A stretch of 64,000 nucleotides of DNA, taken from Lysobacterales bacterium (GTDB lineage: Bacteria; Pseudomonadota; Gammaproteobacteria; Xanthomonadales; SZUA-5). Of the stretch, positions 12,049-43,632 are shown in pieces. Made by a program: the position numbers and the translations under genes. A model generated the notes under the pieces. It did not search any database. It saw only the letters and a program-made list of their open reading frames with translations, and was not told where the DNA came from. The stretch spans positions 13,314 to 77,313 of the forward strand of contig JALHMH010000023.1 of assembly GCA_022844165.1 (NCBI GenBank). Reading direction: 5' to 3'. Within the stretch, counting starts at the first letter, position 1; the number at the start of each line of letters is the position of its first letter.

Positions 12049-12290
12049 CCAGCGCGGCTTTGCCTCAGACCGTTGAACATGATTGGCTTCGCTCGACAAA
12101 AAGTACTTTCCGCATCCCGCCTTCGCATTTCTGGCCCGGCGGCCCGATTGTATGGCGCTTGGGCCGGCACACGCATTGCGGCGTGGCAACATCGGTCTGC
12201 GCCTCGTTAGCTCAAGGGGCTGCCAAAGCGATAGGCGCTCCGAAAGAAAATTGAATCAAATGGCAAGAACCAGCTCCATTGAGGACTCAC
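12049..12290 (-). repeat. Degenerate full-length copy (H) of the ~240-bp CTAG-bounded repeat
   Basis: Colinear with 27100-27352: ccagcgcggctttgcctcagacc...ttggcttcgc...gcatttctggcccggcggc...ggcacacgc...aaggggctgccaaagc...tcaaatggcaaga...gaggactc. Confidence 0.85.
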
Positions 12291-12950
12291 ATGCTGCAAA
12301 CTCAACATCTCGAAAAGTCCATCCCTGCAGGTCCGTCACGCCTGTGGCTGCTGCGCCAGGTCAACTTCAACGTCGGCGCGGGCGAGTTCGTGGCGATCAC
12401 GGGTCCGTCGGGTGCCGGCAAGAGTACGCTGTTATCGATCCTGGGTTTGATGGACCACGACTTCCAGGGTGAGTACTTGCTCGACGGACAACGCGTCTCT
12501 GCCTTGAATGGCAAATCGCGGCAGGCGCTGCAGCGCGACGCGATCGGCTTTATCTTCCAGCACTATCATTTGATCGACGACTTGACCGTTGCCGAAAATC
12601 TGGACCTGCCGCTGTCGTATCGCAACGTGCCAGCCAGCGAACGCAAGGCGCGCGTCGCCGATGCGCTCGATCGGTTCCGGATGGTAGGCAAGAAGGACCT
12701 CTACCCGCGCCAACTCTCAGGCGGCCAGCAGCAGTTGGTCGCTGTCGCGCGTGCAACCATCACCCGCCCGAAGGTGCTGCTGGCGGACGAACCCACCGGT
12801 GCACTGCATTCGAGCCAGGGTGAGGAGATCATGAATGTGATCGGCGAACTGCATCGAGCCGGCAGCACCATCGTGATGGTCACGCATAACGAAGTGAATG
12901 CTGCACGTGCTCAACGCCGCGTTTCGATGCGCGACGGTTGGCTGGAGTGA
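12291..12950 (+). CDS. Second ABC ATP-binding protein (MacB/LolD type)
   Basis: [37 protein letters not shown] 5 nt upstream. Confidence 0.93.
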
Positions 12951-12959
12951 CAAGTCTCG

Positions 12960-13637
12960 CTATGGGCGGTCTTTACTGGCGCGGTTGAGGCCGGTCAATC
13001 GCGCGATGAGAATCGCCACGAAGAGCACACCCACCACCTGCTGCAACATCGCCAGCGAGCGGGCCGCCGGGCTGACGGGCGTGATTTCGCCGTAACCGGT
13101 GCTGGTCAGCGTCGTCATCGAGTAATAGACCAGATCGGACCAACCGACGACACCGTCCGGATCGTTCGTCGGGTTGATAAAGATCGCTTGCGGATCGAGC
13201 AGCACGACAAGCGAATAGGCGCTGGCCCAGAGCAGCGCCAAGAAAATGTAGATGCACGCCAACGCATACAGCTCATCGGTGGTGACGATCTCGTCGCGCA
13301 GCACGTAGCGCAGCAGGAGCAGCGCCGCAAAACCATGAAACAGCACTTGCGCACTCAACATCGCGCCAAGCACCCAGGTCCACTGCGGCCAGAGGATATG
13401 CGCCAGTTGCAGCGCGATGAGTGGCAAAAAAATCCACCAGCCGCTTCGATACCAAAGTGAATGAACGCGCAGCGTGCGCATAACGCTGAGCACGATGGCA
13501 ATATCCAGAATCTGGCCCAGTGCGCGCACCGAACGCGAGGAATCGGCGAAGGTATACAACACCAGAGTCAGCGCCAGCACCGCCAACAACGTCAGCGACG
13601 GCAAGCGCCACAACGGCAAGTTGCGCGGCAATCTCAT
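12960..13637 (-). CDS. Potassium-channel-like membrane protein (Ion_trans_2)
   Basis: Several TM helices and pore signature YYSMTTLTSTGYGEITP. Confidence 0.88.
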   Translation of the reverse strand: MRLPRNLPLWRLPSLTLLAVLALTLVLYTFADSSRSVRALGQILDIAIVLSVMRTLRVHSLWYRSGWWIFLPLIALQLAHILWPQWTWVLGAMLSAQVLFHGFAALLLLRYVLRDEIVTTDELYALACIYIFLALLWASAYSLVVLLDPQAIFINPTNDPDGVVGWSDLVYYSMTTLTSTGYGEITPVSPAARSLAMLQQVVGVLFVAILIARLTGLNRASKDRP

Positions 13638-13812
13638 GCTCGATCCCGTACGCGTTCGGTGTTGCCCACTTGCCACGGGCGCCGCACCGATGCGCGCACC
13701 GCCCCGCGAGTTCTCCCGAGTACAGGTTTCCTGGTTCGCATGGAATTGGGTCCGGCGCTCATTGCGATGAACCACACCGATGCCTGCGGGCAAGGGGAGT
13801 GGAGACGCAAAT

Positions 13813-15090
13813 CTACCGCACCAACGTCAACGACAGCCATGGCCAATAGGTGATGATCAATACGCATGCAAACAACAACATGAAAAACGGCCAGCTGGCG
13901 CGTATGACTTCCAGCACCGGGGTTCGAAATCGATACGATGCGATGAACAGATTCATGCCGAGTGGGGCCAGGAACAGACCCACCTGCAGATTGGCGAGAA
14001 ACAGGATGCCAAAGTGCACCGGATCGATTCCGTAACCCGAGGCGATCGGCAGCACCAGCGGCGTGAGCACGACAATCGCCGGGTAACCTTCCAGCAACAT
14101 GCCGAACACCAGCAAGAAAGCATTCAAAACCAGCAGAAAAATCCATTTGCTTTGCACATGTTCCTGCACCCAGGCAAAGAGCTTGCTGGGTACGTCGGCG
14201 TCGATCAGGTAGTTGGTCAGCGCAAAGGCGCAGCCCAGGATCAGCAATATCGCACCGACCAGCATCATCGCTTCGCGCATGATGGTAGGCAACTTAGACC
14301 ACGAAATTTCGCGGCGCACCACCATGGTCATCGCAAACACGTAGACGGCAGTCAGCGCGGCCGCTTCCGAGGGCGCGATCTGTCCCGAATAAATGCCACC
14401 CAGCACCAACAGCGGCAACGGTATCTCGTAACGCGCATCGATCAAAGCGTCGCGGATTTCGGCAAAATTCGTTGCGTCATCCGCTGAACGCTTCGGTGCG
14501 TGTTTGAGTGCGTACAGCGAGACGACGATCAACATCAAGATGCCCGGCAACAATCCGGCATAGAACAGATCTTCCACCGATACGGGCGGTGTTGTGTTGA
14601 GTTGCTGAGCAACGACACCGTAGATGATCAGCGGCAGCGACGGTGCGAACAACAGTCCCATGCTGCCCGAGGCTGTGACCAGACCTAAAGCAAAGCGAGG
14701 CGAATAACCACCCGTAACCAAGGCTGGATAGAGCACCGCACCGAGCGCAACAATCGTCACGCCAGAGGCGCCGGTCAGCGCCGTAAACAGAGCGCTGGCC
14801 AACACAGCAACAATCGCCAGCCCACCGGGCATCCATCCGAACAGCGCGCGCGTCAGGCGCACCAAACGCTGAGGGGCGCCGCTCTCGCTCAGCAAATACC
14901 CCGCCAGCGTGAACAACGGGATGGCGATCAGTACTGGCATCTCGCCGAGCCGGTTGATTTCGACTGCGACAATCGCCGCTTCGTAGCCTTGCGCAAAAAA
15001 GCCCAGCAGCGCAACGATCGCGATCAATGCAAAAAACGGCGTTCCGGCGAGCGCCAGCAGCAAAATGCCAAGTGCAATCAACGCGGTCAC
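13813..15090 (-). CDS. dctM: TRAP transporter large permease
   Basis: IAIPLFTLAG, GLLFAPSLPLIIY, GIDPVHFG, PLGMNLF motifs. Confidence 0.93.
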   Translation of the reverse strand: MTALIALGILLLALAGTPFFALIAIVALLGFFAQGYEAAIVAVEINRLGEMPVLIAIPLFTLAGYLLSESGAPQRLVRLTRALFGWMPGGLAIVAVLASALFTALTGASGVTIVALGAVLYPALVTGGYSPRFALGLVTASGSMGLLFAPSLPLIIYGVVAQQLNTTPPVSVEDLFYAGLLPGILMLIVVSLYALKHAPKRSADDATNFAEIRDALIDARYEIPLPLLVLGGIYSGQIAPSEAAALTAVYVFAMTMVVRREISWSKLPTIMREAMMLVGAILLILGCAFALTNYLIDADVPSKLFAWVQEHVQSKWIFLLVLNAFLLVFGMLLEGYPAIVVLTPLVLPIASGYGIDPVHFGILFLANLQVGLFLAPLGMNLFIASYRFRTPVLEVIRASWPFFMLLFACVLIITYWPWLSLTLVR

Positions 15091-43079: not shown

Positions 43080-43171
43080 CCCTCAAAAGCGGCGTGTGAT
43101 CGAGACGTCGACAATCGCGAAACATTCCGCATCATAGACGCTGCTTGTGGGGTGCGCCGAGTTGGCTTGAA

Positions 43172-43191
43172 CTGAGGCGAAGCCTCGCTAG
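43172..43191 (+). repeat. End fragment (E) of the CTAG-bounded repeat
   Basis: CTGAGGCGAAGCCTCGCTAG is identical to the last 20 nt of copy B. Confidence 0.85.
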
Positions 43192-43610
43192 GTCTTGCCG
43201 ATAATCGATGCTGTTGCGATCAACTCCTCCAGGAGTGCCATCGACACTCGCCCGGACACGGCATAGGGATCGAGTAACGCACGCTCGCCGTACTTGAGCA
43301 AAACCGATGCGTTGATTTTGGCCAGATTGACCAGCCCCATGGTCCATCCGGCAAAGCGGCGCTCAGTGACTTCTTCATAGTGCAATAAGGTCACCTGAAC
43401 GTGTCTTGGATCCGCTGCGATTCGGTTGTACAACACATTGACCTGCTCGCGGCCGCCCTCGAGTACTTGCATGTACACCTCGCCGCCGTGGCACAAGATG
43501 CCGGTAATGCCGCGCGCTGGATTGTGCTTGCGCGAGGCTTCGAGTATCGATTCGATCGATGTTGAGTTGGCGCCGGCGGCGCGGCTGGCATAGAGCAGGC
43601 GTACGAGCAT
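43188..43610 (-). CDS. Short BLUF-domain blue-light photoreceptor
   Basis: RLLYASRA, NPARGITGIL, YMQVLEG, DPRH, RRFAGWTM (conserved Tyr/Asn/Gln/Trp/Met). Confidence 0.95.
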   Translation of the reverse strand: MLVRLLYASRAAGANSTSIESILEASRKHNPARGITGILCHGGEVYMQVLEGGREQVNVLYNRIAADPRHVQVTLLHYEEVTERRFAGWTMGLVNLAKINASVLLKYGERALLDPYAVSGRVSMALLEELIATASIIGKT

Positions 43611-43612
43611 GA

Positions 43613-43632
43613 CTAACGTCCTTGACTAAGCG
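43613..43632 (+). repeat. Left-end fragment (F) of the CTAG-bounded repeat
   Basis: CTAACGTCCTTGACTAAGCG versus copy D CTAGAGTCCTTGACTGAGCG (17/20). Confidence 0.6.

Follow-up and report, generated by a model that had tools for sequence, protein, structure and literature searches.

The subject of this report is a hairpin-rich repeat of about 245 bp that is dispersed through a 64,000-nucleotide stretch of a Lysobacterales bacterium genome (contig JALHMH010000023.1, positions 13,314 to 77,313), which is called the window here and corresponds to C23:13314-77313 of a source genome of 4.68 Mb in 59 contigs. We conclude that these repeats are probably non-autonomous miniature elements (minis) of an unannotated family of CTAG-inserting elements of about 1.8 kb, which is spread across phyla, and that they are moved in trans by the ~533-aa protein encoded by that family. 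The minis have no terminal inverted repeats and are flanked by CTAG, their ends are those of long elements which carry an open reading frame (ORF) and have multiplied, and no known transposase domain was found in the ORF product. This protein is the likely transposase, and structural modelling points to a Rep_trans-like tyrosine nuclease with a TBP fold and a winged helix.

Copies, ends and flanks of the mini

An element profile run over the window, with the tips read directly, recovered every copy that an earlier, sequence-only reading of this DNA had listed, each at the position given there, and the profile search added one degenerate right-end fragment (36334-36429) to that list. In all, the window has three copies of full length, two that are shortened and four end fragments. 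Throughout this text, the hairpin end is the side that reads GAGGC-GAA-GCCTC-G up to CTAG, which is the right end of window copies on the plus strand, and the opposite side is called the TCCTTGA end. The features are as follows.

12050..12288, minus strand: copy A, an old full-length mini (profile E 1e-51; ~70% identity to copy B)
26765..26780, minus strand: solo hairpin-end tip, consisting of a CCAG flank and the first ~12 bases of the hairpin end; read directly, being below the size limit of the profile
27100..27352, minus strand: copy B, full-length long form (profile E 4e-80), with CTAG on both sides
33402..33640, plus strand: copy C, full-length long form (profile E 3e-75), with CTAG on both sides
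35003..35110, plus strand: copy D, a complete 108-bp mini with both ends, in which profile positions 2-39 are joined to 177-246; flanks CTGG and TTAG
36334..36429, plus strand: degenerate right-end (hairpin-end) fragment (profile E 3e-6), also in repeat-finder family D3
39144..39326, plus strand: copy E, short form, with profile positions ~95-169 missing; flanks CTAG and CTGG
43172..43191, plus strand: solo hairpin-end tip, ~20 bases up to CTAG, read directly
43614..43663, plus strand: left-end (TCCTTGA-type) fragment, ~50 bases after CTAA (profile E 0.004), in repeat-finder family D4

A repeat finder groups the window copies as direct and inverted families (D2-D4, D6-D8, D10 and I1-I13), and all of them fall between crude ORF calls, in keeping with the earlier description of the repeat as essentially intergenic.

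For the genome-wide census, a profile was built on 54 full-length genomic matches. It gave 332 matches in the source genome, which were chained into 267 elements, and these comprise 124 with both ends, 67 with the hairpin (right) end only, 35 with the TCCTTGA (left) end only and 41 with internal sequence only. This copy number is far above chance. By size, the 124 complete copies divide into 62 of 220-259 bp, 54 of 160-189 bp and 8 of 100-159 bp. The sequence-only reading had described conserved ends around a modular, deletable middle, and this description holds genome-wide, since one common deletion (profile ~95-169) is present in 54 of the 124 complete copies; the short form has multiplied in its own right. 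For the 118 copies that could be paired over their full length, identity to the nearest neighbour has a median of 94.3%; in 15 copies it is 98% or more, and in one case two loci with unrelated flanks hold copies that are 100% identical. The spread of identities, together with this identical pair, indicates that copying went on over a long period and continued until recently. No match to the mini was found in plasmids. Crude ORF calls are overlapped by more than 60 bp in 33 of 123 copies genome-wide and, judging from a few inspected cases, such overlaps seem to arise from longest-ORF starts that run into the stop-poor element. The orientation of copies with respect to neighbouring genes is unbiased, with 18 co-oriented and 26 opposed in tandem gene contexts, 19 in convergent and 18 in divergent ones.

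The two ends do not resemble each other. Alignment of the left end with the reverse-complemented right end gave a mean score of 9.8, compared with 11.2 for shuffles (z -0.6, n=123), and the first 12 bases of the two agree at 2.2 positions on average, so the impression from the window that clear terminal inverted repeats are lacking was correct. Flanks could be read for 123 of the 124 complete copies, the remaining copy lying at a contig edge. CTAG, which had been taken for the boundary of the element, is found outside the TCCTTGA end in 67 of these 123 and outside the hairpin end in 56, with CTAG on both sides in 42. The other flanks are mostly CCAG, TTAG, CTGG or CTAA, that is, mostly one transition off, and there is no conservation outside the four flank letters. 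CTAG is scarce in the source genome, where 1,390 occurrences are observed and 16,678 are expected from base composition (0.08); about 9% of all CTAG words in the genome therefore flank this one family. As a result of this scarcity, different CTAG-flanked repeats pile up together, as they do at window 26765-27352. TTAG and CTAA stand at 0.22 of expectation in the source genome, and CCAG and CTGG are slightly enriched (1.2).

Where two copies abut, they are arranged head-to-tail in 20 of 20 cases and have one tetranucleotide in common (binomial p 2e-6), an arrangement which was also found in other taxa. Because the abutting partners are often different length variants, they are not simple tandem duplications, and the strictness of the stacking fits an enzyme that uses a resident end as its target. 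CTAG lies near the breakpoint in 5 of the 67 right-only and 1 of the 35 left-only fragments, and since it is so seldom found there, the one-ended fragments do not represent another kind of CTAG-bounded unit. Fragments with the hairpin end only outnumber those with the TCCTTGA end only by 67 to 35, which may stem from one-ended events or simply from easier detection of the better-conserved end. Solo hairpin tips were considered as excision footprints and rejected as such, there being merely 5 of them genome-wide.

Among 39 genomes of the order, 14 match the profile at E <= 0.001. Full-length copies occur only in the source genome and in the one other species of its genus (G001, referred to as the sister species; best 80% identity), and the remaining genomes with matches have the internal hairpin module only. 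The sister species, at ~70-83% identity to the source genome in genes, also supplied an empty orthologous site of the kind suggested as a check by the sequence-only reading: the cluster at window 26741-27349, the site of copy B, corresponds to ~68 bp with a single CTAG at the conserved right junction. This clean junction was found at site B only. By synteny, the spacers of copies A and E have no copy in the sister species, base-level alignment being blocked there by intergenic divergence. Logan contigs of four runs over window 26000-44000 included none that bridges an empty site, the contigs being short and broken at repeats, and contig joints matched other genomic copies. Outward-facing end pairs 0.6-4 kb apart in the source genome were also inspected; none encloses a candidate gene, and all are separate complete copies around ordinary genes.

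Some further observations concern the surroundings of individual copies. The TCCTTGA-type end of copy A lies 3 bases before the ATG (12291) of the next gene, and at this junction (window 12283-12293) the copy contributes GAGGA upstream of the start codon, where the orthologue in the sister species has an unrelated leader; the GAGGA may thus be a co-opted ribosome-binding site. Copy B adjoins another CTAG-flanked repeat at 26942-27096, a distinct unit of ~155 bp whose terminal inverted repeats are clear and which lies between two CTAG words, the right one of which it has in common with copy B. This repeat gave 62 BLAST pieces with 9 near-full copies in the source genome, and many matches in the sister species. 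A block of three GC-rich hairpins at window 26806-26935 is itself a repeat, with 35 occurrences in the source genome that cover at least 80% of its length, and at least 20 occurrences in the sister species.

Long elements with the same ends and their protein

A pattern scan for the 22-base hairpin end followed by CTAG, run on one genome per species, located the exact hairpin end at no fewer than 115 loci across many phyla. Carriers include Chromatiales (Thiosymbion, Thiorhodococcus and Thiocapsa), Vicinamibacterales and other Acidobacteriota, Planctomycetota, Akkermansiaceae and other Verrucomicrobiota, Bdellovibrionales, Pseudomonadales and others. Beyond a common stretch of ~30 bases the sequences are unrelated between taxa, and many of the cross-taxon elements begin with a TCCTTGA...GAGTCAA motif after CTAG. 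Among the 118 distinct occurrences listed, this left-end motif lies 94-323 bp upstream in 38 (including at least one false positive of the regular expression) and 1805-1871 bp upstream in 6, while 6 others have seemingly spurious distances of 1008-2632 bp; in 68 the motif was not found, many of these having short flanks only. CTAG stands beyond the TCCTTGA end in 6/6 of the long elements, and at their hairpin side it is imposed by the search pattern. Each of the six contains one ORF of 520-555 aa, read from the hairpin end toward the TCCTTGA end, and tblastn found the ORF beside the hairpin end in 9 long-flank loci, some of them broken, and its first residues in several short-flank loci. The mini of the source genome and the long elements have ~30-35 bases in common at the hairpin end and, at the TCCTTGA end, two motifs that are spaced alike, ~21 bases apart.

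The ORF-bearing element is mobile. In a Thiosymbion metagenome-assembled genome (MAG), six full 553-aa frames with identical scores were found along with many minis; two of the element copies, found at different sites, are identical throughout 1,791 bp (0 differences), and two element copies are each followed head-to-tail by a mini. Many other homologues of the ORF are alone on contigs of ~1.8 kb. In Thiocapsa marina 5811 the ORF is present once in intact and twice in broken form, and a copy in Caballeronia is bounded by the same two ends, beyond which stand CTAA and CTAG. In the Caballeronia sp. SBC2 plasmid NZ_CP049319.1, an in-frame TAA is found at about locus position 697, soon after the conserved N-terminus of the ORF, and the annotated CDS starts just beyond it; this ORF may be a broken copy or have a mis-called start.

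Minis are also found in genomes in which the ORF was not detected, namely in Thiorhodococcus mannitoliphagus DSM 18266 and two MAGs, which make up 3 of the 5 mini-bearing genomes tested. A search of the source genome and 58 relatives likewise found the ORF in none (0/59). Taken together, these figures indicate that gene-less carriers are common; in MAGs, a multi-copy contig of 1.8 kb may go unbinned. The proposal of the sequence-only reading, a non-autonomous element moved in trans by an enzyme that is not encoded here, thus agrees with the many dispersed copies, the empty site in the sister species, the ORF-bearing elements with the same ends and the absence of the ORF from these 59 genomes.

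The flanks of the wider family are asymmetric. Among 80 metagenome loci that bear the ORF, 50 of 66 flanks at the hairpin end are CTAA, 14 are CTAG and 2 are other words, and at the TCCTTGA end 38 of 42 flanks are CTAG, 2 are CTAA and 2 are other words. The pair CTAA/CTAG occurs in 23 of the 33 loci in which both ends were read, and the identical Thiosymbion copies show the same asymmetry. A symmetric 4-bp duplication can therefore not hold for the family at large. It is possible that TA or CTA is duplicated inside CTAG and that the next letter belongs to the element, or that the nick falls after CTA and one CTA is carried along.

The ORF protein of the long elements has no family match in Pfam or NCBIfam and none to HUH, DDE, PD-(D/E)xK or recombinase families, and 38 diverse members compared with the families gave only weak winged-helix matches. 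It belongs, however, to a large group of proteins. In a word-indexed search 8,000 of 8,000 scored candidates reached E <= 1e-3, and the top 120 of these are unnamed or 'hypothetical', and an exhaustive profile search returned 15,167 cluster representatives at E <= 1e-3, with 1,993 at E <= 1e-30. Matches are also carried by plasmids of Caballeronia, Burkholderia, Paraburkholderia, Rhodococcus and Mycobacterium (27 records), and the 15 plasmid matches listed are annotated as 'hypothetical' or 'uncharacterized protein', or are unannotated. A sequence search of the PDB gave nothing significant, and the ESM Atlas gave unnamed clusters only.

A first structural model, from an alignment of 20 sequences, reached a pLDDT of 60.5 and matched winged-helix proteins only; it was replaced by a second AF2 model from 38 sequences, down to 28% identity, with a pLDDT of 85.7 and a pTM of 0.75. 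Ranks 1-4 of the Foldseek search of the PDB with this model are chains of 4CIJ, the rolling-circle initiator RepSTK1 (E 1.4e-3 to 3.8e-3, probability 0.94-0.99). VIA-align placed the TBP structure 1mp9_B over model residues 24-399 (Z 9.3, rmsd 4.3, 179/189 residues aligned) and winged-helix repressors over residues 404-545 (Z ~9). The viral models of BFVD gave 7 matches at E <= 1e-3, one of them to a giant-virus TBP and others to unnamed entries (down to 4e-6), and a named Inoviridae replication protein followed at E 7e-3. The invariant residues E136, N197, H199, N218, Q273, E275, K347, Y349, R357 and D367 map to the modelled sheets or their immediate vicinity, and in the 38-sequence alignment the invariant Y349 is flanked by K347 and K351. 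Of the Rep_trans family itself, a search of 61 genomes of the phylum gave sub-threshold matches only.

PMC13107129 describes a TBP fold for Rep_trans enzymes, whose catalytic tyrosine lies in a YxxK-type motif with acidic metal ligands, and a distant archaeal Rep relative that couples this fold to a MarR-like winged helix. The pattern of matches reported in that paper, to TBPs and inovirus Reps, is the pattern of the ORF protein here. Judged from its model, the protein may work like Rep_trans enzymes, as a remote relative.

Mode of transfer and competing explanations

The mini retains the two unlike ends of the family, namely ~45 bases with TCCTTGA...GAGTCAA and ~30-35 bases of the hairpin end, in which the hairpin GAGGC-GAA-GCCTC sits one base from the flanking CTAG, and between them lies a lineage-specific, hairpin-rich filler that can be shortened. 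In the mechanism that we propose, the single ~533-aa protein of the family would move the minis in trans, its ORF for this lineage being either on unbinned multi-copy contigs or lost after the minis had been seeded. This protein would recognise the two unlike ends, nick one strand at CTAG-type sites and transfer that strand, and a transfer in the rolling-circle or 'peel and paste' style would make the end of an existing copy a preferred, oriented target. The minis would then be natural minimal substrates of a new prokaryotic transposon class, in which a TBP-fold, Rep_trans-like tyrosine nuclease, distinct from DDE, HUH and recombinase enzymes, inserts single strands at CTAG in a fixed orientation and existing copies serve as landing pads; we consider this fuller proposition to be evenly poised between right and wrong.

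Several observations weigh against it. Since the ORF was found neither in the source genome nor in its order, mobilisation in trans is argued here by analogy. Evidence for the predicted fold, a TBP-like saddle of two beta-sheets with a winged helix after it, is moderate: no PDB match of the model falls below E 1e-3 in Foldseek, 4CIJ is not among the top 50 of VIA-align, Pfam Rep_trans (PF02486) matches 0 of the 38 members at E up to 1, and hhalign against a 263-aa fragment of pT181 RepC gives a probability of 0.07. Given that no link to Rep_trans was found at the sequence level, the protein is not filed as a member of that family. In the source genome, the left and right flank variants of the minis co-vary, with 11 matching non-CTAG pairs compared with 3.5 expected (p 2e-4); the effect persists in the 93 non-tandem copies (9 compared with 2.6 expected), and its signal comes from positions 1, 2 and 4. 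These flanks look like a 4-bp target duplication, the hallmark of staggered double-strand cutting. None of the flank letters is significantly inherited among close relatives, at the low power given by 13 or fewer variants per position. Orientation of copies shows no association with GC skew (Fisher p 0.07, 0.59 and 0.86 at 5, 10 and 25 kb), which is weak in this genome. Finally, loss of unstable inverted pairs, which form long palindromes, could be another explanation for the missing inverted neighbours.

Much of this evidence bears on an explanation that keeps the same family and changes the chemistry: the 533-aa protein would cut both strands at CTAG with a stagger and leave a true duplication of 2-4 bp, and its TBP-like saddle would mainly bind DNA. 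The co-varying flanks, the lack of a flank position inherited with the element and the weak likeness to solved Rep_trans structures all speak for it, as does the precedent of IS630, which, as Tenzen and Ohtsubo are said to have found in 1991, inserts at TA within CTAG. It must, however, accommodate unlike ends, which would be unusual for a symmetric transpososome, the CTAA/CTAG flanks of the wider family, the head-to-tail order of every abutting pair and a protein that matches no DDE, PD-(D/E)xK or recombinase family, and we regard it as rather unlikely, if deserving of serious thought. An ordinary MITE (miniature inverted-repeat transposable element) of the DDE type, moved by a host IS5- or IS630-like transposase that targets CTAG, is suggested by an IS5-like element with CTAG flanks in the genome, by two or more further families of CTAG-flanked repeats, which end in inverted repeats and often have one CTAG in common with the mini, and again by the resemblance of the flank co-variation to a target duplication. 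The mini has no terminal inverted repeats, however, the inverted repeats of the IS5-like element, as read, differ from the mini ends, the source genome has no DDE_3 gene, and in many phyla the same two ends bound a different gene without a DDE domain. This explanation, which the sequence-only reading had entertained as an IS5/IS701 partner, is accordingly given very little credence.

The other partner entertained there, a hairpin-recognising HUH enzyme of the IS200/IS605 TnpA or RAYT kind, would suit a hairpin-rich element without inverted repeats whose hairpin end stands beside a fixed tetranucleotide, and the genome has one Y1_Tnp gene. This sole gene is, however, flanked by a different and unrelated hairpin repeat, the two end hairpins of the mini are unlike each other, in contrast to IS200/IS605 ends and to the paired inverted REPs of a REPIN, and the long relatives encode no Y1 or Y2 HUH domain; we find this idea hardly tenable, and the least probable of those considered. 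That the repeats are structured RNA genes or cis-regulatory RNA elements under selection, possibly also mobile, might be read from folding: copy C folded whole as single-stranded DNA is far more stable than its shuffles (z -4.3, 0/200 as good), the pairing of an internal palindrome is retained through compensated changes, and copy A lies directly upstream of a start codon. Each end folded alone shows no excess stability (z -0.6 to +1.3), and the two ends differ in both sequence and predicted fold. Alifold called three short helices on 62 long copies, with pairs so nearly invariant that covariation is uninformative. Rfam gave no match at the gathering score over the window, nor at E up to 1 over copy C. 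Moreover, gene orientation is unbiased (18 co-oriented versus 26 opposed), many copies are truncated or decayed, and in other taxa the interior is swapped for unrelated sequence, so that the ends alone persist. The RNA alternative raised in the sequence-only reading is on these grounds highly unlikely.

The mini-hairpins described in that reading do exist, as stated; its further statement that the CCCC...GGGG palindrome keeps its stem while the loop varies needs amending, as there are at least three perfectly paired versions of the stem and both stem and loop vary, with compensation. This palindrome (e.g. window 33472-33488) repeats in its stem a GAGTCAAG-type motif of the TCCTTGA end, and it could represent a collapsed end or what is left of a second binding site. 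The internal hairpin module (profile ~108-164) forms about ten tandem units with a 69-bp period at G000:C45:18300-19063, beside a left-end fragment. An internal hairpin of ~32 bases (profile ~133-164) occurs alone repeatedly in other genera of the family, one genome (G008) having 10 matches at 91% identity, and has the look of an independent, REP-like repeat that the mini has taken up. A further, third repeat with CTAG flanks measures ~260 bp, has inverted-repeat ends and was seen at G000:C1:242045-242330 and in ~15 other places, several of them at contig ends; it has an internal hairpin module of ~76 bp (profile 89-165) in common with the mini, and contigs often break inside it.

As for the mobile genes of the genome itself, the Y1_Tnp gene (IS200/RAYT-type, 149 aa; G000:C48:21200-21900) has the same direct repeat with a GC-rich hairpin on both sides and adjoins a small PIN-like ORF. 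The IS5-like element (G000:C11:120616-121911) encodes a 364-aa DDE transposase and has inverted repeats of ~16 bases with CTAG on both sides; a derivative of ~45 bp, reduced to its two inverted repeats, occurs at scattered places in the genome, often directly beside minis. An IS110 fragment of the source genome was also considered as a partner and discarded, its ends being unrelated to those of the mini.

Significance and comparison with known systems

The minis are unusual among non-autonomous transposons in that they have no inverted repeats, stack head-to-tail only and have a parent family of 15,167 protein clusters, whose members, as far as listed, are 'hypothetical'. Our literature search, which did not extend to subscription journals, found no description of the bacterial element or of the protein family; what is added here is the gene-less minis, the spread across phyla with near-invariant ends, and a natural data set of 124 copies on ends, flanks and stacking. 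Should the enzyme act as its fold suggests, transposition would acquire an additional class of enzyme, akin to the rolling-circle initiators of plasmids and phages, and if the minis do represent a new class, ~80 bases of end sequence would be enough in cis. The family would also explain orphan hairpin-rich repeats in many MAGs, and the assembly breaks at them, and would tie the spread of the element to the scarcity of CTAG. Its short, defined ends and its cultured carriers (Thiocapsa marina 5811, Caballeronia sp. SBC2 and Rhodococcus plasmids) make it directly testable.

The minis agree with the ORF-bearing elements of ~1.8 kb in both end motifs and their spacing, in CTAG flanks and in head-to-tail stacking, and differ from them in having no ORF, in a hairpin filler peculiar to their lineage and in a count of 124 complete copies, reached in a genome in which the ORF was not found. 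They are like classical bacterial MITEs (e.g. Correia, RUP and ERIC) in size, copy number, intergenic location, internal deletions and ends common with an autonomous element, and unlike them in lacking terminal inverted repeats and in stacking strictly head-to-tail. IS200/IS605 with their gene-less derivatives (PATEs), IS91/ISCR and Helitrons are HUH systems without inverted repeats; they have unlike ends with subterminal hairpins and a fixed boundary word, and their derivatives outnumber the parents. The mini resembles such derivatives in its unlike, hairpin-bearing ends beside a fixed word and its lack of inverted repeats, but its partner is not HUH, CTAG stands on both of its sides and its flank variants co-vary. 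A preference for CTAG is found in IS630 and also in IS5, which makes a 4-bp YTAR duplication; these, in contrast, are DDE elements with inverted repeats, and no such gene was found with mini ends.

The ORF protein, known here from sequence and a model, differs from the Rep_trans initiators in that it has no sequence match to them and in that its carrier is a chromosomal, multi-copy, CTAG-flanked element and not a plasmid or phage. Its modelled TBP-like saddle recalls pT181 RepC/RepD and RepSTK1 (4CIJ), as its invariant tyrosine among lysines may do, and with the archaeal Rep-Arvir family, as described in PMC13107129, it has in common the succession of a TBP-like saddle and a winged helix that is modelled here.

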